DNA of 64,000 nucleotides from Malacoraja senta (Eukaryota): the NCBI GenBank assembly GCA_038087875.1, contig CM075995.1, forward strand, positions 10,356,001 through 10,420,000, written 5' to 3'. Position 1 is the first letter of the stretch, and each line of letters opens with the position of its first letter. The position numbers and the translations under genes are program-made. The notes beneath the pieces are model-generated. The model did no database searches. It was given only the letters and a program-made list of their open reading frames with translations, and was not told the DNA's origin. Positions 387 to 64,000 of the stretch are shown here, piece by piece.

Positions 387-547
387 TTGTGGAATCGTTG
401 ATTCGGTTTTCGGGACGACATTGACCTTCAATTGCGGTGGATTTGTCGGTCGATATGTGAACATCATTATCCCAGGCCCGGATAAAACATTAACCCTGTG
501 CGAAGTTGAAATATTTGGTTCAGAACTCCCGTACTTACATGGAAAAG
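387..547 (+). CDS. FTLD exon B0 (C-terminal part of a domain whose A exon is upstream)
   Basis: tttcag|TTGTGGAATC...GGAAAAG|gtagg; [53 protein letters not shown]. Confidence 0.9.
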
Positions 548-3500
548 GTAGGCTGAGCTTCCCGCCGAGCCTCTGGTTGTACACTGCCGCACAGCTTAGT
601 TGAAAGTTTCTCGCACTGATGATGTCTGAGGATACCTTCCTTATTGAAGCGCAGTACCGTCTCTCCCAACCCTCTGCTCTTTGGCTTTCGTAGTTTACTC
701 GTCAGATTTGGACCCTCGCTGTGTCCGAAAATGAAATTCCTGAGTCACTCGATGTATACGCCGTCATCCATTTCGTCTGCAGACCTTATGCTGATAAACA
801 CCATCCTGGCATCAAAAAATCACACACCGATTGAAGCACGCGTGGAGAGTATCTCCCCGTTACATGACTACAGAACGGCCCTCCCTTGAGTTGTAGTGCA
901 ATCTCGATATTTTAACCTGCCTCAGCGCGGTTCTCAGACTAAAGTTCTCCAGCCCTATTACCACAACACCATACACCATATTATGCAATCTATTGCTTTA
1001 TTTCTACTTTACCAGTTGCTCTTGTGTGCGGCTCATTGCACTGATGTACAGAACGTACAGTACAAAGAAGTGTTTGCACTGCATCTCGCTTCCCTTGGCC
1101 ACACAAAAGCAAGACGAATATGAATGAAATATACTGATAACCCAACCCCTGATAGAAGAAATACCTCCATCGGTATCAGTAAAGTGTTTCCCACCTAACA
1201 GAAAACGTGGCGTTGGGAGCAAGTCCGACCCAGTCCAGCACGGATGAAGGGGCAGGTGCTGAGCGAGCCAATGATGGGAACATCGACAGCGACTTCAGGC
1301 ATGGTTCATGCGCACGCACCAGGAAATCCAAGGACCCCTGGTGGAGAGTAGATCTAAAGGAAAGCTACAACGTGTCAGATGTAAGAATCACCAACAGAGC
1401 AGACTGCTGCTCGGACCAGCTCCAAGGAGCAGAGATCCGCATCGGGGACTCGCTGGAGTACGATGGCAATTCCAACAGACTGTAAGTATTCATAAGCAAT
1501 CGCCGAATCTATTCACTGACGGCGTCGTCTTCTACAAATCCCACTGTTACTGGAGCAATGATAACATGAGTGGGTAAAAAAGAGAGATGCTGCAGGTTAC
1601 GAATTGTTTCATTGCAGACAAAATTGAAATTGTGCTCCTCTGCTCCAGATGCGGTACACAATGACACAGAGCCGTAGTTTACTTATGCAATGGCACGAGC
1701 TGCTTTCGTATCGCTTTTACGGTGGGGGTTAATAAAACAAGGTGCATAAGTCTATAATCCACGTTATGTAATTTGAACAATCGGATTGCATTGGCAATGT
1801 TCAAGTAATCATTGCCTATTGTATGAGTGAGAGATCATGCAGTCGCAATCCAGTCAATGTTACGTACTGCGGATCCTGGTTTAAACCGAAGATAGCCACA
1901 AAAATCCGGAATAACTCCGCGGGTCAGACACCTTTGCTGGAGAAAATAAATAGTTCACGTTTCTGCTCGCGACCTTCCTTCAAATTGTAGGAAGAAGGGT
2001 CACGACCCGAAACGTCACATATTCCTTTTCCGCAGAGATGCTGTCGGAGCCGCAAGGCTGCCTACGTATCCGGATCGTCTTCTGTTCCATCTGTTCGGAA
2101 CACGAGCAAGTGGATACGATGCAGGAGGTAACGTGGGACCCCCACATATCCCCGGGAACTGTCACCAGTTCACCCGCACATGACTGCGATAACCTTTAGC
2201 AGGCTTCCTGATCCGCATGATCGACAGATTGCGTCTCACCTTTAAATGCTCATTATTTCAGCTGTGGAATCGTTGATTTAGTTTCGGAGACGACATTCAT
2301 CTTCAATTGTGGAGGATATGTCGGTCGATATGTAAACATCATCATCCCAGGCCCGGATAAAATTTTGACCCTGTGCGAGGTTGAGATTTTTGGTTCAGAA
2401 CTCCTGCACTTTCATGGAAAAGGTAGGTTGAAGTTCCCACTGGGACTCTGGTGATACACTGCTCCACAGCGTATTGAGCGATTCTCTTGCTGATGAAGTC
2501 TGTGTATAATTACCTTACTGAAACCCCCTACCGTCTCTGACAACGATCTGCTATTTGACATTGTTAGTTTACTAGCCAGTCTTAGACCTTCGCCTTTTCC
2601 GAACATGAGACTGTCTGAAGGGGAGATGCCAGAGAGTAATGGTGGATGGTTGTTTGTCAGGTTGGAGGCCAGTGACTAGTGGGGTGCCACAGGGACCTGT
2701 GTTGGGTCCACTGTTGTTTGTCATGTACATCAATGATCTGGATGATGGTGTGGTAAATTGGATTAGTCAGTATGCAGATGATACTAAGATAGGTGGGGCT
2801 GTGGATAATGAAATAGATTTTCAAAGTCTACGGAGAGATTTATGCCGGTTGGAAGAGTGGGCTGAAAGATGGCAGATGGAGTTTAATGCTGATAAGTATG
2901 AGGTGCTACATCTTGGCAGGACAAATCAAAATAGGACGTACATGGTAAATGGTAGGGAATTGAAGAATGCAGGCGAACAGAGGGATCTTGCAATAACTGT
3001 GCACAGTTCCCTGAAAGTGGAATCTCATGTAGATAGGGTGGTAAAGAAAGCTTTTGGTGTGCTGGCTTTTATAAATCAGAGCATTGAGTATAGAAGTTGG
3101 GATGTAATGTTAAAATTGTACAAGGCATTGGTGAGGCCAATTCTGGAGTATGGTGTACAATTTTGGTCGCCTAATTATAGGAAGGATGTCAACAAAATAG
3201 AGAGAGTACAGAGGAGATTTACTAGAATGTTGCCTGGGTTTCAGCAACTAAGTTACAGAGAAAGGTTGAACAAGTTAGGGCTTTATTCTTTGGAGCGCAG
3301 AAGATTAAGGGGGGACTTGATAGAGGTCTTTAAAATGATGAGAGGGATAGACAGAGTTGACGTGGATAAGCTTTTCCCACTGAGAGTAGGGAAGATTCAA
3401 ACAAGGGGACATGACTTGAGAATTAAGGGACAGAAGTTTAGGGGTAACATGAGGGGGAACTTCTTTACTCAGAGAGTGGTGGCTGTGTGGAATGAGCTTC

Positions 3501-6500
3501 CAGTGAAGGTGGTGGAGGCAGGTTCGTTTTTATAATTTAAAAATAAATTGGATAGTTATATGCACGGGAAAGGAATGGAGGGTTATGGTCTGAGCGCAGG
3601 TATATGGGGCTAGGGGAGAATACGTGTTCGGCACGGACTAGAAGGGTCGAGATGGCCTGTTTCCGTGCTGTAATTGTTATATGGTTATATGGTTATATGG
3701 TCTGTTTTATAAAAACTGTGACTCTCGGTGCACACACCGTCCTCCATTTCGTCCGGAGACCTTATGCTGATAAACCGTACCCCGTTCCTGCCTTTTCCCC
3801 AAATCCCCTGACTCCGCTATCATTAAGAACCTTATCTAGTTCTCATTTGAAAGTATCCAGAAAACACCGCCCTCTGAGGCAGAGAGTTCCCCAGACCCAC
3901 AACTCTCTGTGAGGAAAAAGTGTTCCCTCGTCTCCGTTCTGAATGGCTTCCCCCTTTTCTTAAACTATGGCTCCTGGTACTGGACTCGCCCAACATCGGG
4001 AACATCTTTCCTGCCTCTAGCGTGTCCAAACCCTTAAAAATCTTCAATAAGATATCCTCTCATCCTTTAAAACTCCAGAGTATACAAGCCCAGCCGATCC
4101 ATTCTCTCAGCATATCACAGTCCCGCCATCCCGGGAATTAACCTTGTAAACTTACGTTGCACTCTCTCAATAGCATGGATGTCCTTCCTCAAATTAGGGG
4201 ACCAAAACTGCACACAATACTCCAGGTGTGGTCTAACTAGGGCCCCATACAACTACAGAAGGACCTCTTTGCTCCTATACTCAACTCCTCTTATTATAAA
4301 GGCCAGCATGCCATTCGCTTTCTTCACTGCCTGCTATTTCTGCGGTGCTTACTTTCATTGACTGGTGAACGAGGACCCCCAGATCCTATTGTACGTCCCC
4401 TTTTCCCAACTTGATACCATTTAGATGGTAATCTGCCTTCTTGTTTTTGCTACCAAAGTGCTTAACCTCACATGTATCCACATTATGCTGCATCAGCCAT
4501 GCATCTGCTCAGTGAACCAACCTGTTCAAGTCACCTTGTATTCTCATAGCCTCCCCCTCACAGTTCACACTGCCACCCAACCTTGTGTCATCTGCAAATT
4601 TGCTAATGTTACTTTGAATCCCTTCATCTAGATCATTGATGTATATTGTAAATAGCCGCGGTTCGACCACCGAGGCTTGCGGCGCCCCACTAGTCACTGC
4701 CTGCCATTCTGACTGAGACCCGAAAATCCCTACTCTTTGTTTCCTGTCTGCCAACCAAATTTATATCCATGTCAGCACTCTACCCCCAAGACCATGTGCC
4801 CTAATTTTGCCCACTAATCTCCTATGTGGGACTTTATCAAATGCTTTCTGAAAGTCCTGGGACACTACATCCACCGGCTCACCCATATCCATGTTCCCAG
4901 TTACATCCTCAAAAAAATCCAGAAGATTAGTCAAGCATAATTGCCCCTTAGTAAAGCTGTAGTGCAATCGCGATATTTTAACCTGCCTCAGCGCGGTATT
5001 TGGACATTTTCTATAGGTCTGTAGACATAATGCTATAACACCATATTATGCAATCTGTTGTTATAATTCCATTATACCTGTTGCTATTGCGTGTGGCTCC
5101 ATTGCACTGATGTACTGTATGATTTGATTGTATATTACTAAGCATAGTTTTTGATGTACCTCGCTTCACTTCACCATACAAAAGCAGTACGAATATCAAT
5201 GCTATACACTGCTGATCCAAACCTTGATAGGAGACCTACATTCGTCGGCATAAAATAGAAATGTAGAAAATAGGCGAAGGAATAGGCCATTCCCCCATTC
5301 AAGCCAGCACCACCATTCAATATGATCATGGCTGATCATCCAAAATGAGTATCCCTTTCATGCTTTCTCCTATATCCATTGAATCCGTTATCCCTGAGAG
5401 CTATATCTAACTCTCTCTTAAATACATCTTGCCTGTCGGCTCAGTGATACGTTTTCATCCCCACAGAAAACGTGGCGTTGGGAGCAACGCCGACCCAGTC
5501 CAGCACGTATCAAGGGGCAGCTGCTGAGCGAGCCAATGACGGGAACAGCGACAGCGACTTCAGGCATGGTTCATGCGCGCGCACCAGGAAATCCAAGAAC
5601 CCTTGGTGGAGAGTCGATCTAAAGGAAAGCTACAACGTGTCAGATGTAAGAATCACCAACAGAGCAGACTGCTGTTCGGACCAGCTCCAAGGAGCCGAGA
5701 TCCGCATCGGGGACTCGCTGGAGTACAATGGCAATTTCAACAGATTGTAAGTATTCATACGAAATTGCCAAATCTATTCATCTGCGATGTCTTCAACTAT
5801 AAATGACACTGTTGCTGAAGCATTGATAACATAAGTGGGTAAAAAAGAGAGATTCTGCAGGTTACGAATAGTTTCACTGCAGATAAAATTAAAATACTGC
5901 GCCTCTGCTGCAGATGCGGAAGACAATGACACAGAGGCAACGTTCACTTCGCCAATGGCACGAGCTGCTGCCGTGTCGCTTTAACAATGGGGGTTAATAA
6001 AATATGCTGCATAAATCGGCAGTTGAATTTAATACAGGTTAGGTAATATTGGACAATCGGATTGCAGTGGCAATGTTCAAGTAACCAATGCCTACTGTAT
6101 AAGTGAGAGAGATTGCAGTCTCTATCCAATCAATGCTACCTCCGTGTCGTAAGCAACTGCAGATCCTGGTTTAAACCGAAGATAGACAAAAAATCTGGAG
6201 TAATTCTGCGGGTCAGACAGCATTGCTGGAGAAACGAAATAAGTGATATTCTTTCAGATTGTTTTGAATCTCACGACCAATTGAAGGCTCACGACCCGAA
6301 ACGTCACATATTACATTTCCCCAGAGATGCTGTCGGAGCCGCAAGGCTACCAACGTATCCGGATCGCCTGCTGCTCCAAGGCATCTGTTCGGAACAAGTG
6401 GATAAGATGCCGGTGGCAACGTGGGAGTCCCACATATCCCCGGGACCAGTCACCAGTTCACCCGCATAGGACTGCGATAATTTTAGCACGCTTCCTGATT

Positions 6501-9500
6501 CGCATGATCGACAAATTGGCGTCTCACCTTTAAATCCTCATTATTTCAGGTGTGGAATCGTTGATACGGTTTCTGGGACGACATTAACCTTCAATTGTGG
6601 TGGATCTGTCGGTCGATATGTGAACATCATCATCCCAGGCACGGAAAATGTTTTGACCCTGTGCGAGGTTGAGATATTTGGTTCAGAACTCCCATACTTA
6701 CATGGAAAAGGTAGGCTGAAGTTCCCGCCGAGGCTCTGGTGGTTCACTGCCCCACAGCTTAGTTGAGCGATTCTGCTGCTGGTGAATATGTTACTTACTG
6801 AAACCCCGTACCGTCTCTGACAACGATCTGCTATTTGCCATTGTTAGGTTACTCGCCTGTCTTGGACCTTCGCCTTGACTGAACATGAGCCTGTCTGTTA
6901 ACGAAAACCCTGTGACACTCGGTGCACACGCCGTCATCCATTTCATCCGGAGACCTTATACTGAGCCAGGCACCAACAAAATACACACCTATTAAAACAC
7001 GCTTGAAGCGTATCTCCCCGTTACCAGACCACTGCATGATCCTCCTTTGACTTGTAGTGCAATGGCGATATTCTAACCTGCGTCAGCGCGGTACTTGGAC
7101 TTATTTTCTATAGGTCTGCAGATGTAATACTATAACACCACATAATACAATCTGTTGTTTTAATTCTACTTTACCTGTTGCACTTGCGTGTGGCTCCATT
7201 GCACTGATGTACAGTATGATTTGATTGTATATTACTAAGTAGAATTTTCGATGCATCTCACTTCACTTCACCACACGAATGCAGTACGAATATCAATGAA
7301 ATACACTGCTGATCCAAACCTTGAGAGCAGGCCTACATTCGTCGGTATTAAATAAAACGTTGAAAATAAGTGCAGAAGCAGACCATCCCGCCCTTCGAGC
7401 CAGCACCGCTATTCAAGGTGATCATGGCGGATCATCCCCAAAAAACGTTTTTTTCTGGAGGATTTCAAGAAAGATTTAAATAGACCTCTTAATTATAGCG
7501 GAGTCAAGGGATACGGTGAGAAGGCAGGAACTTGGTACTGATTGTGGATGATCAGCCATGATCACATTGAATGGCGGTGCTGGCTCGAAGGGCCAAATGG
7601 CCTACTTCTGCACATATTGTCTATTATACATTGTATTTCTACCCCATTCCTCCTTTCTCTCCATATCCCTTGAAGCCGTTATCCCTCAGAGCTATATCTA
7701 AAAATACATCTTGCCGTTCGGATCAGCTAGTCGTTTCCGTCCCCACAGAAAACGTGGCGTTGGGAGCAAGGCCAACCCAGTCCAGCACGAAGGAAGGGGC
7801 AGCTGCTGCACGAGCCAATGATGGTAACAGCGACAGCGACTTCAGGCATGGTTCATGCGCGCGCACCATGAAATCCAAGAACCCTTGGTGGAGAGTCGAT
7901 CTAAAGGAAAGCTACAACGTGTCAGATGTAAGAATCACCAACAGAGCAGACTGCTGCTCGGACCAGCTCCAAGGTGCCGAGATTCGCATCGGAGATTCGC
8001 TGGAGTACGATGGCAATTTCAACAGACTGTAAGTATTCAAAAGCGATCGCCGAATCTATTCACCTGCGATGTCTTCTGCAAATTCCACTGTTACTGGAGC
8101 AATGATCACCTGAGTGGGTACAAAAGAGTGATGATGCAGGTTACGAATAGTTTCACTGCAAATAAAATTAAAATGCGACCCGCTGCTCCAGATGCAGAAG
8201 AGCCGTAGTCCACTTATCCAATGGCACGAGCTTCTGCCGTATCGCTTTAGCGATGAGGGTTAATAAAAGGAGGTGCATAAATCTGTGATTGAAGTTAATT
8301 CAAGTTATGTAATATTGAACAATCGGATTGTAGTGGCAATGTTCAAGTAACCAATGCCGATGAGTGAGATATCATGCAGTCTCTATCCAGTCAATGCTAC
8401 CGACGCAGTGGAAGCACCTGCGGATCCTGGTTTATACAGAAGATATACACAAAAAATTGGAGTTCTTCTGCGGGTCAGACACCATTGCCGGATAATCGAA
8501 ATAGGTGATGTTTCGGGACGAGACCTTCCTTCAGATTGTATTGAGACTGAATAAGGGTCACGACCCGAAACGTCACATATTCCTTTTCCACAGAGGGTCG
8601 GTTTCGGAAGGGTACGTGCGTATCCGGAATGTCTTCTGCTCTAAGCCATCTGTTCGGAATACGAGCAAGTGGGTACAATGCCGGAGATAACGTGGGAGCC
8701 ACACACATTCCCGGGACCTGTTACCAGTTCACCCGCACAGGCCTGTGATAACCTTTAGCACGCTTCCTGATCCGCCTCATCGACAGATTGGCGTCTCATC
8801 TTTAATTCCTCATTATTTCAGCTGTGGAATCGTTGATTCAGTTTTTGGGACGTCATTCATCTTCAATTGTGGAGGGTCTGTCGGTCGATATGTGAACATC
8901 GTCATCCCAGGCCCGGATAAAATGTTGACCCTATGCGAGGTTGAGATATTTGGTTCAGAACTCCCGTACTTACATGGAAAAGGTAGGCTTAGTTTTCAGC
9001 TGAGGCTCTGGTGGTTCACTGCCCCACACCTTAGTTGAGCGATTCCCCTGGAATTGACGTCGTGATACAACTATATTTGGGAAACCTCGTACCGTCTCTG
9101 CCAACGATCTGCTAGTTGCCATTCTTAATTTAGTCGCCAGTCTTGGACCTTCACCTTGTCCGAACATGAGCCTATCTGTTAATGAAAACCCTGTGACACT
9201 CTATAGGTCTGTAGATATAATAATATAACACCATATTATGCAAACTATTCGTTTAATTCCACTTTACCTGTTGCTCCTGCGTGTGACTCCCTTGCACTGA
9301 GGTGCAGTACGATTTGATTGTATATTACTAAGTAGAATTTTCGATGCATCTCACTTCACTTCACCACACGAATGCAGTACGAATATCAATGAAATACACT
9401 GCTGATCCAAACCTTGAGAGCAGGCCTACATTCGTCGGTATTAAATAAAACGTTGAAAATAAGTGCAAAAGTAGACCATCCCGCACTTCGAGCCAGCACC

Positions 9501-54500: not shown

Positions 54501-57500
54501 TGTTGCACTTGCGTGTGACACCCTTGCACTGAGGTGCTGTACGATTTGATTGTATATTACTTAGAAGAGTTTCCCATGCATCTCACATCACTTCACCGCA
54601 CGAAAGCAGTACGAATATCAATAGTATACACTGCTGATCCAAACCTTGATAGAAGGCCGATATTAGTCGGAATTAAGTAGAAACGTAGAAACTAGCCACA
54701 GGAGTAGGTCATTGCGCCCTTCCAGCCTGCACCGCCATTCAACATGATCATGGCTGAACATCCAAATGAGTACAGTTAAAGAAGGAACTGCAGATGCTGG
54801 AAAATCGAAGGTACACAAAAATGCTGGAGAAACTCAGCGGGTGCAGCAGCATCTATGGAGCGAAGGAAACAGGCAACGTTTCGGGCCGAAACCCTTCTGC
54901 AGACTGATAGGGGGTGGGGAGCCACCGAAACGTTGCCTGTTTACTTCGCTCCATAGATGCTGCTGCACCCGCTGAGTTTCTCCAGCATTTTTGTGTACAT
55001 CCAAATGAGTACCACGTTCCTGCTTTCTCCCCATATCCATCTAATCCGTTACCCTGAGACCTATATCTAACTCTCTCTTAAATACATTTTGCCTGTCGGC
55101 TCAGTGAGACGTTTCCATCCCCACAGAAAACGTGGCGTTGGGAGCAACTCCGATCCAGTCCAGCACGGATGAAGCGGCAGCTGCTGAGCGAGCCAATGAC
55201 GGGGATAGCGACGGCGACTTCAGGCATGGTTCATGCGCGCGCACCAGGAAATCCAAGAACCCTTGGTGGAGAGTCGATCTAAAGGAAAGCTACAACGTGT
55301 CTGATGTAAGAATCACCAACAGAGCAGACTGCTGCTCGGACCAGCTCCAAGGAGCCGAAATCCGCATCGGGGACTCGCTGGAGTTCAATGGCAATTTCAA
55401 CAGACTGTAAGTATTCAAAAGCAATCGCCGCATATATTCACCTGCGATGTCTTCTTCTACAAATTCCACTGTTACTGGAGCAATGATAATATGAGTAGGT
55501 AAAAAAGAGGGGTGCTGCGAGTTACGTATAGTTTGACTGCAGATAAAATTAAAATTGTGCTCCTCTGCTCCAGTTGAGGAACACAATGACACAACGCCGT
55601 AGTCTACTTATCCAATGGCACGGGGCGCTGCCGTATCGCTTTAGCGATGGGGGGTAATAAAAGGAGGTGCATAAATCTGTAATTGAAGTTAATTCATGTA
55701 ATATTGTGCAATCGGATTGCAGTGGCAATGTTCAAGTAATGTGTGAGCGAGAGATCATGCAGTCTCTATCCAGTCAATGTGTCGGAAAGGAATTGGAGAT
55801 TCTGGTTTAAGCCGAAGATGGACACAAAAATCTGGAATGATTCCGCGGGTCAAACACCATTGCTGGAAAAACGAAATAGGTGACGTTTCGTGTCGAGACA
55901 ATCCTTCAGATTTTATTGAGCCATAGAAAATAGTTGCATGAGGAGGCCATTCTTCCATTCGAGCCAGCACCGCCATTGATTGTGATCATGGCTGATCGTC
56001 CCCAATCAATAACCCGTGTCTGCCTTCTCCCCATATCCCTTGATTCCATCAGCCCCTAGAGCTCTATCTAACTCTCTCTTAAATCCTTCCAGTGATTTGG
56101 CCTGCACTGCCCTCTGTGGCAGGGAATTCCACAAATTCACAACTTTCTGGGTGAAAACGTTTTTTCTCACCTCAGTCCTAAATGGCCTCCCCTTTATTCT
56201 AGGATTCAGACCCTGGTTCTGGACTCGCCCAAAATTGGGAACATTTTTCCTGCATTTAGCCTGTCCAGTCCTTTTATGATTTTATATGTTTTTATAAGAT
56301 GCCCCCTCATCCTTCTGAACTCCAGTGAATACAAGACTAGTCTCTTCAATCTTTCCTCATATGACAGTCCCGCCATCCCAGGGATCAAACTCGTGAACCT
56401 ACGCTGCACTGCCATAATCACAAGGACGTCCTTCCACAATACTCCAGATGTGGTCTTAACAGAGCCCCCTACAACTGCAGAGGAACCGCTCTACTCCTCT
56501 CCTGAAATCCTCTTGTTATGAAGGCCAACATTTCAATAGGTTTCTTCACTGCCTGCTGTACCTGCATGTCAACTTTCAGTGACCGGTGTACAAGGACACA
56601 CACGTCTCGCTGTACCTCCCCCTTTCTTAACGAAACCCATTTAGATACTAATCTCCCCCCCTTGTTTTTGCCACCAAAGTGGATAACTTAACATTTATCT
56701 ATATTATACTGCATCTGCCACGCATCTGCCCACTCACTCAACCTGTCCAGTTCACCCTGCAACCTACTAACATCCTCTTCACAGTTCACACTGCCACCAG
56801 CTTTGTGTCAACCGCAAACTTGCTAATGTTGCTCCTAATTCCCTCTTCCAAATCATTAATATTTAAGTTAAACAGTTGCGGCCCAAACACCGAGCCTTGC
56901 GGCACTCCACTCGCCAGTGCCTGCCATTACGAAAACGTCCCTTTCACTCCTACACTTTGCTTCCTGTCTGCCAACCAATTTTCTATCCATGTCAACCCTA
57001 CCTCCAATACTATGTGCTCTAATTTCAGTCAACAGTCTCCCCCTTTGCGGGACCTTATCAAAGGCTTTCTGAAAGTCTAGATACACTATATCCACTGGCA
57101 CCCCTTCATCCATTTTACTTGTCACATCCTCCAAAAATTCCAGAAGATCAGTCAAGCACGATGTTCCTATCATAAATCCATGCTGACTTGGACTAGTCTT
57201 TTTACTGCTATCCAAATGCCCCATTATTATTTCTTTAATAATTGACTCCAGCATCTTTCCCACCAGCGAGGTCAGGCTAACTGGACTGTAATTCCTCGTT
57301 TTCTCTCTCGCTCCTTTCTTGAAAAGTGCGATAACATTAGCTATCCTCCATTCCACAGGAACTGATCCTGAATCTATTGAACATTGGAAAATGATCACCA
57401 ATACTTCCAATATATCTAGAGCCACCTACCTGAGGATTATGCGTTGCAGACCATCAGGGTCAGGGGATTTATCATCCTTCAGTCCCATTACCGTACCAAA

Positions 57501-60500
57501 TACTATTTCTCGCCTTATGAAAATTTATTTCAGTTCCTCTGTCCCCTTAGATCATCTGTCGTCCAGTACTTCTGGGAGATTGTTTGTGTCTTCCTCAGTG
57601 AAGACAGATCCGAAGTACCTGTTCAATTCTTCTACCATTTCCTTGTTCCCCATAATAACTTCACCCATGTATGCCTTCAAGGGACCCAGATTTGACTTTG
57701 CTATTCTTCTTCCCTTAACATTACTAAAGACGCTTTTACTGTCCTTCTTTATATTCCCGGTCAGCTTCCACTCGTACTTAATCTTTTCAGGCCGTTTTGC
57801 CCGTTTTGTTTCCTTCTGTTGTCCGATGTAAGTTTCCCAATCCTCTGGCTCTTGGCTACTCGTTGCCGCGTTATACATCTTTTCTTTTAGTTTTATTCTA
57901 TCCCTAACTTCTATTGTCAGCCACAGTTGCCTCCTACTCCCCTTAGAATCTGTCTTCCTTTTTGGAATGAAATGAACCCGCGTCTTCAGGATTATGCCCA
58001 GAAATCCCTGCCATTGTTGTTCCCCCGTCATTCCTGCTAGGATCCCTTTCCAGTCTACCTTGGCCAGCTCATGCCTTCATAGTCCCCTTTGTTCTACTGC
58101 ATCACGGACACCTCCGATTTATCCTTCTCCGTCTCAAATTGCAGAATAAAACTAATCATATTCTGATCACGACCTCCAAGCGGTTCCTTTACCTCGAGTT
58201 CACTTATCAAATTGAATTCATTGAACAACACTAAATCCAGAATTGCCTTATCTCTGGGCAATTCAACTGCAAGCTGCTTTAAGAATTCATCTCGGAGGCA
58301 CTCAACGAAATCTATATCTTGGGGTCCTGAACCAACCTGATTTTCCCAGTCTACATGCATATTGATATCACCCATCACCACAGTGGCATTATCTTTGTTG
58401 CATGCCAGTTTTAACTCCGGCTGCAACTTACACCCTACATCCGGGCTACTATTTGAAGGTCTGTAGATAACACCAATTAGTGTCTTCTTGCCTTTACAAT
58501 TCCTCAACTCAATCCACTGTGACTCAACCTCGTCAGTCCCTTTGTCTTCCCTCGCAAGGGACTCACCAACAGAGCTGCCCCCCCCCTCTCTGCCCACATG
58601 CCTATCCTTTCTATAGGATGTATAACCCTGAATATTAAGTTCCCAGGCCCGATCCTGCTGCAGCCACGTCTCGGTAATCTCCACAATGTCATATCTACCA
58701 ACCTCTAACTGAGCCTCAAGCTCATCTACTTTACTTCTTATACTTCGCACATTCAAATACAATACTTTAAATTACTATTGCATCTCAACTTTCACATCGA
58801 TCCCTATTAAACTTGGCCATGCTCTCCTATCACTTTGTGAGCTTTCGTTCCCGTTAATTCTGGCGTCATTAACTATCCCTTTACTCCCTTTCCCTTTAAC
58901 TCCATCCTTGACTATCCCATTTGACGTCCCCCCCCTTATTTAGTTTAAAACTACCTGTGTCACAGTGGCAAACTTGCCTGCCAGTATGCCGGTCCCCCAC
59001 CTGTTAAGGTGGAATCCGTCCCTTTTGTACAGTTCGCATTTACTCCAAAACAGATCCCAGTGGTCTAAGAAGGGTCACGACCCGAAGCGTCATATATCCA
59101 TTTTCTCCATAGATGCTATCGGAACCGCAAGGCTACCAACGTATCCGGGTCGCCTCCAGTTCCAAGCCATCTGTTCGTACAACGAGCAAGTGGATACGAT
59201 GCGGAGTTAACGTGGGAGCCCCACATATCCCCGGGACCATTCACCAGTTCACCCGCACAGGCCTGCGATAACGTTTAGCACGCTTCCTGATCCGAAGGAT
59301 CGACAGATTGGGGTCTCACATTTAAATCTTCATAATTTCAGCTGTGGAATCGTTGATTCAGTTTCCGGGACGAGATTCACCTTCAATTGCGGTGGAATTG
59401 TCGGTCGATATGTGAACATCATCATCCCAGGCCCGGATAAAATGTTGACCCTGTGCGAGGTTGAGATATTTGGTTCAGAACTCCCGTACTTACATGGAAA
59501 AGGTAGGCTGAACTTCCCGCTAAGGCTCTCGTGGTACACTGCCCCACAGCTTAGTGAGCGATTCACCTGCTGATGAAGTCGTAGTATATCGAACTTACTG
59601 AGTCCCTGCACCGTCTCTGCTAACAAACTGTTATTTGCCATTGTTAGTTTACTCGCCAGTCTTGGACATTCGCCTTGAACGGACATCAGTCTGTCTGTTA
59701 TTGGAAACCCTGTGAGTCTCGGTGCACATCCCTCCTCCATATCCCCTTATACTGATAAACACTAGCCCGGCAACAACAAAACACTTTCCCCGCTACTGCA
59801 CGATCCTCGCTTGACTTGTACAATCGTGATATTTTAACCACCCTCAGCGCAGAAATCTGACTTATTTTCAATAGTCTGTAGATATAATACTATAACACTA
59901 TATTATGCAATCTGTTATTTTAATTCTACTTTACCTGTTGCTCTTACGTGTGGCTCCATTGCACTGATGTACAGTATGGTTTGATTGTATATTACTAACA
60001 ATGGTTTTTGATGCATCTCGCTTCACCACACCAAAGTAGTACGAATATCAATGAAATGCACTGCTAATCCATACCTTGAGAGAAAGCCTACATTCGTCAG
60101 TATTAACTAGAAACGTAGAAAATAGGTGCAGGAGTTAAAATGTGGATTGTCGAAATGTCGGAGACCCTACATCTAGAAAGAATAAGACTTGTCTTAATGG
60201 ACAAACAATAACTTTTTGTTAAAATATGGGCCCCATTCATTGCCTATTTGAAGGGATAGATTGGCCCAGCACGAAAACCCAACTGAAGCTTGAACTCAGG
60301 ATTAGATGTAAAATTATATTTCATAACCTACGAACTTATATCCAATGACGTATTATAAGTAATTCATTCCACCTCTTTTTTTGATATTTGTAATTCTTTT
60401 TTCTTTATATCTCTCTTTTTCTATCTATATTAAAAAGAAAACACTAGAAGCAGAATTAATCGACAATTAACAATTTTAATAATGTATGATTGATGTATAT

Positions 60501-63500
60501 GAAAAGTTTTTTTCTATTATAATATGTTACTATACTTTATAATATGTTTGTTTCTAATAAAAACATTGTAAAAAAAAAATAGGTGCAGGAGTAGGTCATT
60601 CCACCCTAGGATCTAGCCGTCATTCAATATGATTATGGCTGATCATCCAAAATAAGTACCTCGTTGCTGCTTTCGCCCCATATCCCTTGAATCCGTTATC
60701 CATGAGAGCTATATCTAACTCTCTCTTAGCTACTTCTTCCCTTTCGGCTCAGTGAAACGTTTCCATCCCCACAGAAAATTTGGCGTTGGGAGCAAGTCCG
60801 ACCCAGTCCAGCACGGATGAAGGGGCGGCTGCAGAGCGAGCCAATGACGGTAACAGCGACAGCGACTTCAGGCATGGTTCATGCGCGCGCACTAGGAAAT
60901 CCAAGAACCCTTGGTGGAGAGTCGATCTAAAGGAAAGCTACAACGTGTCAGATGTAAGAATCACCAACAGAGCAGACTGCTGCTCGGACCAGCTCCAAGG
61001 AGCCGAGATCCGCATCGGGGACTCGCTGCAGATGGATGGCAATTTCAACAGACTGTAAGTATTCATAAGCGATCGCCGAATCTATTCACCTACGGTGACT
61101 TCTTCTACAAATTCCACTGTTACTGGAGCAATGATAACGTGAGAGGGTAAAAAAGAGAGATGCTGCAGGTTACAAATGGTTTCACTGCAGATCAAATTAA
61201 AATTGTGCTCATCTGCTCCAGATGCGGTAGACAATGATACAGAGCAGTAGTCCACCTATCCAATTGCACGAGCAGCTGCCTATCACTTTAGCGATAGAGA
61301 TTAATAAAAGGAGGTGAATAAATCTGTAATTGAAGTAAATTCAAGTAATGTAATATTGAACAATAGGATTGCAGTGGCAATGTTCAAGTAACCAATGCCT
61401 ATGAATGAGAGATCATGCAGTATATATCGAGTCAATGCTACCTACGTGTCAGAAGGAATTGCAGATACTGTTTTAGAAAATATACACCAAAATATGGAGT
61501 AACTCCGCGGGTCAGACACCATCGCTGGACAAGAGGAATAGGTGACGTTTCGGTTCGATTTCATCCTGCAGATTGTATTCAGTCTGAAGAAGGATCTTGA
61601 CTTGAAACGTCACATATTCCTATGCCCCGGAGATGCCTCCGCTCATAGCCATCTGTTCGGAACACGAGCAAGTGGATAAGATGCCGGAGGTAACGGGGAG
61701 CCCCGCATATCCCCGGGACCTGTCACCAGTTCACCCGCACACGACTGCGATAAGTTATCGCACGCTTCCTGATGTGCATGATCAACAGAGTGGAGTCTAA
61801 CATTTATATCCTCATAATTTCAGCTGCGGAATCGTTGATTCAGATTCTGGGACGTCATTCACCTTCTATTGTGGAGGATCTGTCGGTCGATTTGTGAACA
61901 TCATCATCCCAGGCACGGATAAGATTTTGACCCTGTGCGAGGTTGAGATATTTGGTTCAGAACTCCCGTATTTACATGGAAAAGGTAGGCTGAAGTTCCC
62001 GTTCAGGCTCTGGTGGTTCACTGCCCCACAGCTTAGTTGAGCGATTCCCCTGCTGATGAAGTCGTAATAAATCTAACTTACTCAAACCCCGTACGGTCTC
62101 TGACAACGATCCGCTATTTGACATTGTTTGTTACATCACCAGTCTTGGATCTTCGCCTTGACCGAACATGAACCTGTCTGTAAATGAAACCCCAGTGATT
62201 CTGGGTGCACACCCCGTCCTCCATTTCATCCGGAGAACTTATGTTGATAAACACTAGCCAGGCACCAACAAAATACACACTTATTGTAACACGCTTGAAG
62301 CGTATCTCTCTGTTACCAGACTAATACACGACCCTCCCTTGACTTGTAGTGCAATGGCGATATCTTAACCTGCCTCATTCCGGTACTTGGGCTTATTTTC
62401 TATCGATCTGTAGATATAATACTTTAACACCATATTATGCAATCTGTTGTTTTAATTCTACTTTACCCGTTGCTCTTGCGTGTGGCTCCAATGCACTGGT
62501 GTACATTATGATTTGATTGTATATTACTAAGTTGAATTTTCGATGCCTCTCGCCTCACTTCACCACACGAAATCAGAACGAATCTCAATCAAATATACTG
62601 CTGATCCAAACCTTGATAGAAGGCCTACATTCGTCGGAATTAAATAGAAACGTAGAAAATAGGTGCAGGAGTAGGCCATTCCGTCCTTCGAGCCAGCACC
62701 ACTATTCAATGTGATTATGTCTGATCATCCAAAATGAGTACCCCTTTCCTGCTTTCTCCCTAAATCCCTTGAATCCGTTATCCCCGAGAGTTATATTTAA
62801 CTCTCTCTTAAATGCATCTTGCCTTTCGCCACAGTGAGACATTTCCATCCCCACAGAAAACTTGGCATTGGGAGCAAGTCCGACCCAGTCCAGCACGGAT
62901 GAAGGGGCAGTTGCTGAGCGAGCTAAGGACGGGAACAGCGACAGCGACTTCAGGCATGGTTCATGCGCGCGCACCAGGAAATCCAAGAACCCTTGGTGGA
63001 GAGTCGATCTAAGGGAAAGCTACAACGTTTCAGATGTAAGAATCACCAACAGAGCAGACTGCTGCTCGGATCAGCTCCAAGGAGCCGAGATCCGCATCGG
63101 GGACTCGCTGGAAAATGATGGCAATTTCAACAGACTGTAAGTATTCATAAGCAATCGCCGATTCTATTCACCTGCGGTGTCTTCTTCTACAAATTCCACT
63201 GTTACTGGAGCAATGATAACGCGAGAGGGTTAAAAAGAGAGATGCTGCAGGTTACAAATGGTTTCACTGCAGATACAATTAAAATTGTGCTCATATGCTC
63301 CAGATGCTGAAGACACTGATACAGGGCAGTAGTCCACCTATCCAATTGCACGAGCAGCTACCCTATCACTTTAGCGATAGAGATTAATAAAAGGAGGTGA
63401 ATAAATATGTAATTGAAGTAAATTCAAATAATGTAATATTGAACATTAGGATTGCAGTGGCAATGTTCAATTAACCAATGCCTATGAATGAGAGATCATG

Positions 63501-64000
63501 CAGTCTATATCCAGTCAATGCTACCTACGTGTCAGAAGGAATTGCAGATACTGTTTTAAACAGAAGATATACACCTAAATATGGAGTAACCCCGCGGGTC
63601 AGACACCATTGCTGGACAAAAGGAATAGGTGACGTTTCGGTTCGAGATCATCCTGCAGATTGTATTCAGTCTGAAGAAGGATCTTGACTTGAAACGTCAC
63701 ATATTCCTATGCCCCGTAAATGTTGTCGGAGCCTCAGGGCTCCGCTGATAGACATCTGTTCGGAACACGAGCAAGTGGATACGATGCCGGAGGTAACGGA
63801 AGCCCCACATATCCCCGGGACCTGTCACCAGTTCACCCGCACAGGACTGCGATAAGTTCTCGCACGCTTCCTGATGCGCACGATCAACAGAGTGGAGTCT
63901 AACATTTATATCCTCATAATTTCAGCTGCGGAATCGTTGATTCAGATTCTGGGACGTCATTCACCTTCTATTGTGGAGGATCTGTCGGTCGATATGTGAA
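387..64000 (+). CDS. Multi-exon gene (internal part) for a tandem F-type lectin (fucolectin-like) protein with at least 17 domains
   Basis: Alternating 280-nt A and 161-nt B exons with cag/gt boundaries. Junctions G|AA (Glu, phase 1) and CT|N (Leu, phase 2) are in frame. FTLD motifs NVALG..TQSS, ANDGN, C..T....PWWRVDL, ITNR.DCC, GRYVNI and [10 protein letters not shown] are present. Confidence 0.9.
1202..1481 (+). CDS. FTLD exon A1
   Basis: ctaacag|AAAACGTG...AGACT|gtaagt; ORF 1207-1485. Confidence 0.9.
2262..2422 (+). CDS. FTLD exon B1
   Basis: ttcag|CTGTGG...AAAG|gtagg; 161 nt, open frame. Confidence 0.9.
2618..3700 (+). mobile_element. CR1 LINE, family b, 5'-truncated (RT C-terminus and 3' UTR)
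   Basis: ORF 2639-3535 with GVPQG and YADD; (GGTTATAT)n tail; short tctg duplication. Confidence 0.9.
3779..4957 (-). mobile_element. Degenerate CR1 LINE fragment (related to family a)
   Basis: Minus-strand RT fragments [11 protein letters not shown] and SKFADDT. Confidence 0.85.
5254..5421 (-). mobile_element. Short CR1 3'-end fragment (representative copy; present upstream of A2-A16)
   Basis: Matches the 3' terminus of CR1 family a (tagaaaataggtgcaggagtaggccatt...ctctctcttaaat). Confidence 0.75.
5467..5746 (+). CDS. FTLD exon A2
   Basis: ccacag|AAAAC...AGATT|gtaagt; ORF 5472-5750. Confidence 0.9.
6550..6710 (+). CDS. FTLD exon B2
   Basis: ttcag|GTGTGG...AAAG|gtagg; open frame. Confidence 0.9.
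7749..8028 (+). CDS. FTLD exon A3 (K-type)
   Basis: Splice consensus; [17 protein letters not shown]...CARTMK. Confidence 0.9.
8447..8600. mobile_element. Decayed Penelope-like inverted repeat (representative copy; one in every A-B intron)
   Basis: gtttcgggacgagaccttccttcag ... ctgaataagggtcacgacccgaaac arms; similar to 54774-54996. Confidence 0.55.
8822..8982 (+). CDS. FTLD exon B3
   Basis: Splice consensus; within ORF 8745-9038. Confidence 0.9.
9841..10120 (+). CDS. FTLD exon A4 (K-type)
   Basis: Splice consensus; near-identical to A3. Confidence 0.9.
10911..11071 (+). CDS. FTLD exon B4
   Basis: Splice consensus; within ORF 10837-11127. Confidence 0.9.
11929..12208 (+). CDS. FTLD exon A5 (K-type)
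   Basis: Splice consensus; TQSSTKQG. Confidence 0.9.
12996..13156 (+). CDS. FTLD exon B5
   Basis: Splice consensus; within ORF 12919-13212. Confidence 0.9.
13831..14110 (+). CDS. FTLD exon A6 (D-type)
   Basis: Splice consensus; TQSSTDEG...CASTRK. Confidence 0.9.
14646..17840 (-). mobile_element. CR1 LINE family a, copy 1 (end of ORF1 plus decayed APE/RT ORF2)
   Basis: Fragments [27 protein letters not shown]; frameshifts. Confidence 0.9.
18117..18277 (+). CDS. FTLD exon B6
   Basis: Splice consensus; [20 protein letters not shown]...[11 protein letters not shown]. Confidence 0.9.
18679..21760 (-). mobile_element. CR1 LINE family b, nearly intact ORF2 (APE endonuclease plus RT)
   Basis: 843-aa ORF 21752-19221 continued by ORF 19194-18808 after a 1-bp deletion; (ATATAACC)n tail on + strand. 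Confidence 0.93.
22444..22723 (+). CDS. FTLD exon A7 (K-type)
   Basis: Splice consensus; ORF ends 22727. Confidence 0.9.
23517..23677 (+). CDS. FTLD exon B7
   Basis: Splice consensus; open frame. Confidence 0.9.
24352..24631 (+). CDS. FTLD exon A8 (D-type)
   Basis: Splice consensus; [17 protein letters not shown]. Confidence 0.9.
25167..28039 (-). mobile_element. CR1 LINE family a, copy 2
   Basis: Same junctions as copy 1; internal deletion near 27840. Confidence 0.9.
28316..28476 (+). CDS. FTLD exon B8
   Basis: Splice consensus; open frame. Confidence 0.9.
29529..29808 (+). CDS. FTLD exon A9 (K-type)
   Basis: Splice consensus; ORF ends 29812. Confidence 0.9.
30529..30689 (+). CDS. FTLD exon B9
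   Basis: Splice consensus; CGFVDSVSG... Confidence 0.9.
31364..31643 (+). CDS. FTLD exon A10 (D-type)
   Basis: Splice consensus; ORF ends 31647. Confidence 0.9.
32170..35364 (-). mobile_element. CR1 LINE family a, copy 3
   Basis: Same junctions; RT and APE fragments. Confidence 0.9.
35641..35801 (+). CDS. FTLD exon B10
   Basis: Splice consensus; open frame. Confidence 0.9.
36320..36599 (+). CDS. FTLD exon A11 (D-type)
   Basis: Splice consensus; CSSTRK...FNSL. Confidence 0.9.
37451..38702 (+). mobile_element. CR1 LINE family b, 5'-truncated, nested
   Basis: ORF 37642-38616 RT; TTATATTG-type tail; host tatgttt duplicated. Confidence 0.9.
39096..39227 (-). mobile_element. Short Penelope-like (pLTR-type) insertion, nested
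   Basis: Flanked by duplicated acccatttagat; minus strand reads CTGAAGAAGGGTTTCGGCACGAAACGTT; same family as 54774-54996. Confidence 0.6.
40373..44426 (+). mobile_element. Near full-length CR1 LINE family b (ORF1 zinc finger/SGNH esterase plus broken ORF2), nested
   Basis: ORF1 CxxC...CxxC and GDS/GTND/DGLH motifs (40458-41392); ORF2 APE/RT with stops; GGTTATAT tail. Confidence 0.92.
40380..40450 (+). repeat. Three 24-bp tandem repeats in the CR1 5' UTR
   Basis: tttgtattgtatcc(c/a)g(a/g)gtaaggc x3. Confidence 0.85.
46016..46176 (+). CDS. FTLD exon B11
   Basis: Acceptor consensus; donor altered to AAG|gtaata; open frame. Confidence 0.85.
46178..46214. repeat. (TAA)n tract plus AT-rich insert at the B11 donor
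   Basis: taataataataataataaattttatttatatagtgct replaces the usual intron start. Confidence 0.75.
46856..47135 (+). CDS. FTLD exon A12 (D-type)
   Basis: Splice consensus; [13 protein letters not shown]...CSSTRK. Confidence 0.9.
47667..50657 (-). mobile_element. CR1 LINE family a, copy 5
   Basis: Same junctions; internal deletions. Confidence 0.9.
50933..51093 (+). CDS. FTLD exon B12
   Basis: Splice consensus; open frame. Confidence 0.9.
52133..52412 (+). CDS. FTLD exon A13 (K-type)
   Basis: Splice consensus; ORF ends 52416. Confidence 0.9.
52981..53833 (-). mobile_element. GC/CpG-rich non-autonomous retroelement-like insertion
   Basis: Absent from sister K-type introns; ggtttc duplicated on both sides; short CTTGAAT-like tail on minus strand. 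Confidence 0.65.
54054..54214 (+). CDS. FTLD exon B13
   Basis: Splice consensus; within ORF 53980-54270. Confidence 0.9.
54774..54996. mobile_element. Penelope-like inverted-repeat insertion
   Basis: About 74-bp near-perfect inverted arms; duplication of acatccaaatgagtac. Confidence 0.65.
55127..55406 (+). CDS. FTLD exon A14 (D-type)
   Basis: Splice consensus; ORF 55132-55410. Confidence 0.9.
55923..59066 (-). mobile_element. CR1 LINE family a, copy 6
   Basis: Same insertion site; APE ORF 58762-58094 and RT fragments. Confidence 0.9.
59342..59502 (+). CDS. FTLD exon B14
   Basis: Splice consensus; open frame. Confidence 0.9.
60136..60575 (+). mobile_element. 5'-truncated L1/Tx1-like LINE 3' end
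   Basis: ORF2 C-terminal-like [15 protein letters not shown]...[18 protein letters not shown] and poly(A); 17-bp TSD aaaataggtgcaggagt. Confidence 0.8.
60775..61054 (+). CDS. FTLD exon A15
   Basis: Splice consensus; [13 protein letters not shown]. Confidence 0.9.
61824..61984 (+). CDS. FTLD exon B15
   Basis: Splice consensus; [18 protein letters not shown]. Confidence 0.9.
62857..63136 (+). CDS. FTLD exon A16
   Basis: Splice consensus; ORF 62862-63140. Confidence 0.9.
63926..64000 (+). CDS. FTLD exon B16 (cut by window end)
   Basis: ttcag|CTGCGGAATC...; matches B15. Confidence 0.85.

Follow-up and report, generated by a model that had tools for sequence, protein, structure and literature searches.

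Tandem F-type lectin domains in the skate Malacoraja senta: an array that reads as a single open spliced frame

Do the many small exons that follow one another along one stretch of the genome of the skate Malacoraja senta, each coding for part of an F-type lectin domain, belong to one giant gene, and what could its product bind? The stretch in question, termed the window in the following, comprises 64,000 nucleotides (nt) of contig CM075995.1 (genome G000, assembly GCA_038087875.1), the contig being abbreviated C19, such that the window corresponds to C19:10,356,001-10,420,000. Two exon types are distinguished, A (280 nt) and B (161 nt, the C-terminal half of the domain), and one A plus one B make up one F-type lectin domain (FTLD). 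The window turned out to be the middle of a 269-kb array on the forward strand (C19:10,250,058-10,519,441) which extends beyond both window ends, and of which 109 exons with AG/GT sites join into 26,227 nt, 8,741 amino acids (aa) and 54 FTLDs, with an orphan first B. In length the array exceeds the largest vertebrate model found about four-fold; it is conserved across skates and under selection, and its binding pocket is rebuilt.

The array and its reading frame

Between positions 387 and 64000 of the window, 16 A exons of 280 nt and 17 B exons of 161 nt, 33 in all, alternate strictly as B-A, the last B running past the window end with its full 161 nt present in the genome. Seventeen domains are touched: 15 complete, one cut, and one represented by an orphan B. 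Every acceptor carries AG, and GT is found at all 32 donors that end inside the window; the spliced exons give 2,376 aa with 0 stops in one frame, whereas the two remaining frames contain 101 and 74. The phases are uniform (every A 1-2, every B 2-1), the short intron of 518 nt at 35802-36319 is real, and the A exon matches the Pfam families F5_F8_type_C_2 and F5_F8_type_C above cut-off. While divergence in the intron flanks amounts to 13-18%, with 16-59 indels per aligned kb, the exons keep their exact length at 6.5-7.8% divergence, the few exon 'gaps' in this comparison being aligner artefacts between equal-length exons. The 33 exact-length B-A exons without stops and the 518-nt intron between B10 and A11, both claimed in a first-pass annotation of the window, were recovered exactly, and its contrast of indel-rich introns with fixed-length exons held. 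Its estimate of at least 17 FTLDs and over 2,300 aa was right as to the one open frame, but understated the size of the array.

The array was mapped by translated searches that took in 200 kb upstream and 380 kb downstream of the window, and no assembly gap lies within it. The sole stop of the spliced frame is located at the far 3' end, with AATAAA 147 nt after. The predicted product of ~950 kDa carries 81 N-glycosylation sequons and no transmembrane segment, the best 19-residue hydropathy in the 8,741 aa (1.8) falling in the last strand of a domain. Nine B exons lack the usual donor and had been considered as terminal exons that would split the array, leaving a 23-domain gene; this was rejected, as each of them continues for 83-99 aa, rich in Pro, Thr, Ser and Gly, to a single in-phase GTAGGC donor, so that they are long-linker exons. 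One B and one adjacent A have both lost their donors; together they amount to exactly one in-frame module, and the pair must be skipped for the frame to stay open. Each of two broken B copies is followed by an intact B. Near-identical units, many of them 0-7 nt apart, are found among domains 12-16, 33-34, and 41-44 versus 45-48. The last four domains (C19:10,498,036-10,519,441) are far more divergent, though in frame, and are without a clear orthologue among the proteins of the tree described below. Seven further exons of 428 nt, termed B-prime (C19:10,442,166-10,450,437 and 10,467,988), five of them within a 932-bp tandem repeat, are open and possess an AG acceptor and an in-phase donor; they lack the first Cys of B and can be used only as a substitute for the B that precedes them. 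They could be either mutually exclusive cassettes or recent dead copies.

Purifying selection is seen on the codons as well as on all four kinds of splice site. The pairwise ratio of non-synonymous to synonymous substitution rates (dN/dS) is 0.24 for A and 0.43 for B exons in the window, and 0.43 (A, n = 51) and 0.38 (B, n = 40) for all standard-length exons. In the 16 A+B pairs of the window, the single-step variant codons comprise 64 synonymous, 62 non-synonymous and 0 stops (p 6e-9, with 15 multi-step codons left unclassed), whereas 9.8 stop variants are expected under neutrality; the corresponding expectations for all A and all B exons are 17.6 and 9.3, again against 0. Purifying selection, as proposed in the earlier annotation, is thereby borne out, with dN/dS at ~0.24-0.43 and about 10 stop variants expected for none found. 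In all 48 core exons used (the two damaged exons being left out) the B donors and A acceptors are preserved, in contrast to neighbouring intron columns, of which 2 of 82 and 0 of 70 are invariant. As B donors and A acceptors serve only chained units, their conservation supports chaining.

The assembly could be checked with two DNA-like sequencing runs from one study, possibly derived from the source sample of the assembly itself. On 8 contig pieces, covering domains 20-22 only, the depth was 4.3-4.9 (run X1) and 32-40 (run X2) on single-copy intron stretches, compared to 14-16 and 87-97, respectively, on three-copy stretches; read depth thus supports the three near-identical copies tested. The concern, raised earlier, that the array might be an assembly artefact is eased for these three domains, the other near-identical blocks lying outside the comparison, and individuals may not all carry exactly 54 domains. 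Both runs cover introns, and there was no exon-exon junction among 15 joints shown of 960. No RNA run turned up for window 7700-14200, which carries no information about expression. No short skate protein from assembled runs that spans a junction was found among 12 matches, nor among the best 120 of 413.

Fold and binding pocket

An AlphaFold2 model of the Leucoraja orthologue P0066, with 134 residues at a predicted local distance difference test score of at least 90, displays the F-type fold, its best matches being striped bass MsaFBP32 (PDB 3cqo, E 8e-17) and eel agglutinin AAA (PDB 1k12, E 6e-15), with root-mean-square deviations of 1.6 Å and 1.8 Å at 45% and 40% identity. The fold assignment for the array rests on this orthologue model; at the sequence level the match to FBP32 has E 6e-74. 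The F-type fold implied by the earlier annotation is supported on both counts. Common to the array domains and the two structures are Arg79, Asp81, Cys82-Cys83, Ser49 and Phe45. In the 51 standard A exons Arg79, Asp81, Cys82, Cys83 and Ser49 are invariant and Phe45 is found in 48, the vicinal Cys82-Cys83 thus being present in all; at least 6 Cys occur in 52 of the 54 domains, in keeping with the vicinal pair plus the two further disulfides of the family. The DG(N/D/S) core of the calcium motif h2DGx is found in 50 of 54, the two preceding small hydrophobic residues in 6 of 54 (mostly ANDGN). In contrast to MsaFBP32 and AAA, which have two domains and one, the 54 skate domains have a shorter CDR1 (complementarity-determining region 1) and a basic loop after position 52, and have lost Lys16. 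According to the excerpt of PMC5712786, each domain of the MsaFBP32 gene is likewise split over two exons.

The array domains are F-type by fold, yet they fail the fucose motif of the family. The motif reads HX24RXDX4(R/K), with His52, Arg79 and Arg86 holding the 4-OH group of fucose (excerpts of PMC5712786 and PMC12221842). The canonical His-Arg-Arg triad occurs in 0 of the 54 array domains and in 0 of 35 domains parsed in the array models of other skates, as compared to 252 of 481 domains parsed in 206 other proteins. Conversely, Arg-Arg-Gln is found in 35 of 54 array domains and in 0 of the 481 elsewhere; the motif pattern misses some domains, and three array domains were only partly parsed. 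Aligned to 1k12, His52 has mostly become Arg, Arg86 mostly Gln, and Tyr46 mostly Arg, whereas one parsed array domain keeps the His but ends in Leu. The seven-residue loop starting at the His52 position holds on average 3.2 basic residues (52 of 54 domains parsed) versus 0.47 in 485 other domains, and one of its positions carries Lys or Arg in all 51 standard A exons. Within the set examined, the pocket change, as read from these sequences, is specific to skates. Since the canonical triad is replaced, mostly by Arg-Arg-Gln beside a basic loop, plain fucose binding appears doubtful, and a ligand among acidic or sulfated glycans is more likely. The 'multivalent lectin' of the first-pass annotation, if taken as fucose-binding, is therefore not upheld. 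A prediction for one Leucoraja domain of a homotrimer such as AAA and MsaFBP32 form scored 0.00, which is evidence neither way.

Gene start, relatives and competing readings

The beginning of the gene is missing from the assembly. A 200-N assembly gap (C19:10,248,340-10,248,539) lies 1.5 kb ahead of the first B exon, no A exon was found in the 94 kb upstream of the array, and neither there nor in the assembled array was a signal-peptide exon detected, the leaders of three relatives scoring at best 33-39 of ~110. The signal-peptide exon would sit in the gap. A candidate for the missing head is Rhinoraja P0224 (XP_078282511.1), which joins a signal peptide to an isolated A half bearing a basic loop and is encoded on the same contig as the Rhinoraja array; it is without an orthologue in M. 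senta (best 54%). An exon of the FAM83 family 31 kb upstream bounds the array region. A hydrophobic ATG exon at C19:10,215,411 was set aside as leader, being located upstream of the FAM83 exon. At the other end, the frame stops about a dozen residues past the last domain, and none of 61 matches to the pentraxin family PF00354 in the genome is on C19, such that the array differs from the Xenopus pentraxin fusion protein (PXN1 type), with which it shares tandem FTLDs. Among 120 of 549 flanking open reading frames scanned with Pfam, the only additional domains were FAM83/SACK1, mobile-element domains and two ALKBH8_N matches. As regards the flanking features named in the earlier annotation, no signal peptide was found in an upstream region of 94 kb that is interrupted by a gap 1.5 kb before the first exon, no transmembrane segment in the frame, and no pentraxin match on C19.

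Between the units, read-through past any B donor soon meets a stop. AATAAA lies within 500 nt of such a stop in 16 of the 54 B-to-A introns, and a hydrophobic ATG-exon candidate is present in 10 of 54; the earlier statement that no signal-peptide exon, stop or 3' untranslated region separates the units stands in that none of the 54 introns holds a conserved leader or poly(A) signal. A signal-peptide-like segment (window 983-1060, with 46 homologues) was rejected as leader exon: it is T-rich and homologous throughout, but indels shift its frame, only about half of the 47 copies possess an ATG, and no in-phase donor recurs consistently. Such T-rich stretches are a possible trap for gene predictors.

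The closest proteins to a query exon are skate proteins, up to 91% identical. Twelve RefSeq models of Amblyraja, Leucoraja and Rhinoraja follow one another along the array in its own order, their domains being orthologous position by position; they are 75-96% identical, carry the same altered pocket, and are annotated as separate uncharacterised genes of 1-10 domains and 197-1,478 aa. Of the 12 models inspected none begins with an evident signal peptide, and the ends of several fall on intron sequence in the M. senta array, for which reasons they are read here as fragments of one locus. Rhinoraja is placed in Arhynchobatidae, and Amblyraja and Leucoraja in Rajidae, so that array orthologues span two skate families. 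The damaged module of M. senta has a coding counterpart in Amblyraja P0015 and in Leucoraja P0077, and in Amblyraja P0003 a long linker occupies an internal position. In a quick tree of the A halves (n = 129, 92 columns, many forks open), domains 1-5, 7-10, 12-16, 42-44 and 46-49 sit beside their orthologues. Domains 12-16, the greater part of 19-31, and 33-35 cluster as recent groups within the genome, and the block 41-44 recurs in duplicate as 45-48; the copy numbers of the core appear lineage-specific.

Beyond skates, F-type lectins of fish and amphibians have one to five domains (PMC5712786, PMC12221842), and the excerpt of PMC11186620 adds no larger count. The earlier figure of one to about five is accordingly sound for characterised proteins, but not for public models: among 400 proteins the largest complete counts were 13-14 (Xenopus tropicalis LOC100491211), 13 (amphioxus) and 11 (sawshark); 15 A and 8 B matches were counted in a Gigantopelta model, and 37 A halves in a Nucella model that lacks B halves. 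This survey used one representative per 50% cluster, with word searches up to 2,000 residues, and may hide longer models. The X. tropicalis fucolectin, which resembles the skate array as a vertebrate model of many tandem FTLDs, has the largest vertebrate count found and still amounts to about a quarter of it. The model of the sawshark Pristiophorus japonicus (P0002, six isoforms) is the elasmobranch counterpart, with a signal peptide, nothing but tandem FTLDs, a stop and homogenised units; on the other hand, it comprises 11 domains with canonical His-Arg-Arg in all but the first and no long linkers, and represents a separate expansion in its own clade (Shimodaira-Hasegawa-like approximate likelihood-ratio support 98, quick tree). 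According to the excerpt of PMC5712786, oyster bindin is a single gene of repeated, intron-split FTLD units, some without the triad, whose copy number has changed by recombination and splicing; in contrast to the 54 domains under purifying selection in the skate, it has 1-5 domains and is under positive selection. No description of the skate locus was found in the open literature searched, subscription papers and supplements lying outside this scope.

We give an even chance to the locus being one gene for a secreted 54-domain chain of ~0.95 MDa that cross-links acidic glycans, probably sulfated ones, in mucus or in some other gel. Phase-compatible A+B units would have multiplied by unequal crossing-over into one long gene, and one transcript of ~26 kb, with the damaged pair skipped, would give rise to a secreted bead-on-a-string chain, ~200 nm long because two domains of MsaFBP32 measure 81 Å (excerpt of PMC5712786). 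The nine flexible linkers would serve as hinges, likely O-glycosylated, and the preserved half-pocket with its more basic rim would likely bind acidic glycans at high avidity. The sawshark model shows the same plan complete, with signal peptide, 11 domains and stop. Skin mucus of the little skate contains previously undescribed Fuc-(SO3)Gal O-glycans, with 41.7% sulfated (excerpt of PMC10532229), and that of a catshark an FTP-domain protein (excerpt of PMC10707392); these data render mucus cross-linking plausible, though they are no test of that role. A more far-reaching version, in which a megadalton chain of ~55 F-type domains, the longest of its family, had its pocket remodelled on a single occasion in the ancestor of skates (His to Arg, Arg to Gln, and a basic rim), binds sulfated fucosyl glycans, cross-links mucus or egg jelly and still changes its copy number by unequal crossing-over, is rather unlikely to hold in all its parts. 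If the chain is real, it extends tandem multivalency about four-fold and moves the family from opsonin-sized to mucin-sized scaffolds; the Arg-Arg-Gln pocket is addressable with one 16-kDa recombinant domain and could give a reagent for sulfated fucosyl glycans; and the locus illustrates, in three skate genomes, that a single long repeat gene can emerge from automated annotation as numerous 'uncharacterised' loci.

Several points weigh against the secreted cross-linking chain. The frame skips 13 exon-like matches (2 damaged exons, 2 A fragments, 7 B-prime, 2 broken B), and 11 B donors and 3 A acceptors were chosen by hand among in-phase candidates. Domains 51, 52 and 54, although open, are degenerate; their branches are long and the calcium motif is missing. 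The dN/dS is only moderately low, and selection on each exon does not show joint use, as the uniform phases let any A join a later B. The junctions are predicted from the genomic sequence, and RefSeq builds models of 1-10 domains at this locus in three skates. The gene start is absent from the assembly, so that secretion is inferred. With regard to the ligand, Arg occupies the His52 position in 43 of 51 but is not fixed, three units of the window having Ser there, the net charge of the domains is on the acidic side (mean -2.9), and the specificity of the altered pocket is predicted from its residues, while the tissue of use is a guess.

These points leave room for other readings. The uniform phases, which keep any skip of a whole pair in frame, the one pair that already must be skipped, and the seven B-prime exons with intact AG and in-phase donor, usable only instead of the preceding B, would suit a single gene acting as a cassette library, from which alternative splicing yields shorter isoforms of variable domains while the full 54-domain chain is rarely or never made; oyster bindin makes 1-5 domains in this manner (excerpt of PMC5712786), and six isoforms of the sawshark gene are annotated. 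Strict A-B-A-B alternation is, however, what one would expect of an all-inclusive chain rather than of mutually exclusive clusters, and choosing among units 0-7 nt apart would alter length but add little diversity; we regard the library as less likely than the full chain, though as a real rival to it. A long chain that binds no sugar at all, a structural or membrane-binding polymer with its basic loop on anionic lipids or proteins, draws on the analogy with the C domains of coagulation factors, the F-type fold being common to C1/C2 of factor V (PMC12221842), and on the replacement of two of the three triad residues, which reviews take to mean that fucose binding has probably been lost in the protein furrowed and in certain oyster bindins (excerpts of PMC12221842 and PMC5712786). 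It is unlikely in view of how much of the pocket is kept (Arg79, Asp81, the vicinal Cys and Ser49 in 51 of 51, Phe45 in 48) and of deviant F-type lectins that bind other sugars, such as bryohealin and ranaspumin-4 (excerpt of PMC12221842).

We regard it as very unlikely that the locus consists of several independent fucolectin genes, each small and of 1-10 domains, which is how RefSeq treats related skates, with models of 197-1,478 aa in three species. The early read-through stops, AATAAA in 16 of 54 introns and hydrophobic ATG candidates in 10 of 54 could be taken as its 3' and 5' ends, but the latter are one homologous T-rich segment, shifted by indels and with an ATG in about half of 47 copies; B donors and A acceptors are conserved, and 0 of the 12 array models inspected begin with an evident signal peptide. 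Least probable, and close to negligible, is over-expansion in the assembly or a recently duplicated pseudogene array, to which the identical or near-identical units (domains 12-16, 33-34, 41-44 versus 45-48) outside the depth comparison and the lack of any expression seen might point; opposed to it are the roughly three-fold depth on three-copy stretches in two DNA runs of one study, possibly from the source sample, the array being free of gaps, the purifying selection, and orthologous domains in two skate families.

Coordinates and neighbouring loci

Table 1. Exons of the window and selected features of the array (window numbering unless C19 is given).
Feature	Position	Strand	Remark
B exon, domain 17 (C-terminal half) of the 54	387..547	+	
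A exon, domain 18	1202..1481	+	
B exon, domain 18	2262..2422	+	
A exon, domain 19	5467..5746	+	
B exon, domain 19	6550..6710	+	
A exon, domain 20	7749..8028	+	first of three near-identical units; 3x read depth
B exon, domain 20	8822..8982	+	
A exon, domain 21	9841..10120	+	
B exon, domain 21	10911..11071	+	
A exon, domain 22	11929..12208	+	
B exon, domain 22	12996..13156	+	
A exon, domain 23	13831..14110	+	
B exon, domain 23	18117..18277	+	
A exon, domain 24	22444..22723	+	
B exon, domain 24	23517..23677	+	
A exon, domain 25	24352..24631	+	
B exon, domain 25	28316..28476	+	
A exon, domain 26	29529..29808	+	
B exon, domain 26	30529..30689	+	
A exon, domain 27	31364..31643	+	
B exon, domain 27	35641..35801	+	518-nt intron follows
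A exon, domain 28	36320..36599	+	
B exon, domain 28	46016..46176	+	
A exon, domain 29	46856..47135	+	
B exon, domain 29	50933..51093	+	
A exon, domain 30	52133..52412	+	
B exon, domain 30	54054..54214	+	
A exon, domain 31	55127..55406	+	
B exon, domain 31	59342..59502	+	
A exon, domain 32	60775..61054	+	
B exon, domain 32	61824..61984	+	
A exon, domain 33	62857..63136	+	
B exon, domain 33	63926..64000	+	cut by window end; complete 161 nt in genome
Damaged B+A pair	C19:10,273,707-10,279,124		both donors lost
Five long-linker B exons	C19:10,315,302-10,337,170		
Four long-linker B exons	C19:10,441,301; 10,445,393; 10,467,173; 10,491,991		
Terminal B exon	C19:10,519,267-10,519,441	+	only stop of frame; AATAAA 147 nt later
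RefSeq array fragments, Amblyraja radiata/Leucoraja erinacea/Rhinoraja longicauda			LOC116984049, LOC116984036, LOC116984017, LOC116983989, LOC144607509, LOC144607515

The long introns at window 14111-22443 and 36600-46015 are filled with high-copy repeats and show strong GC skew, with intact splice sites on both sides, and the summed read depth mostly exceeds 70,000 across 14458-22868. Upstream, the FAM83-family exon (Pfam SACK1, E 5e-35) is located at C19:10,218,603 on the forward strand (L007:2603-3091), adjoining another assembly gap. The 61 PF00354 matches are distributed over contigs C1, C2, C4, C5, C9, C263 and unplaced contigs, many of them full-length in one frame and many with stops, which may represent either a large dispersed pentraxin family or a burst of pseudogenes.

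A second, more divergent F-type lectin (FTL) locus of about six domains lies downstream on the same strand (C19:10,706,099-10,759,975; L049-L054) and is orthologous to Rhinoraja LOC144607535; one of its A halves is split by ~660 nt. Further small FTL genes, some of which carry the canonical His and Arg, are found on contigs C4015, C4537, C4391 and C854 and at C19:9.52-9.59 Mb (L059-L078). C4015 and C4537 hold the same two-domain FTL gene, and a frameshifted A exon is common to C4015 and C19:9,522,812, which suggests that these copies are haplotype duplicates.

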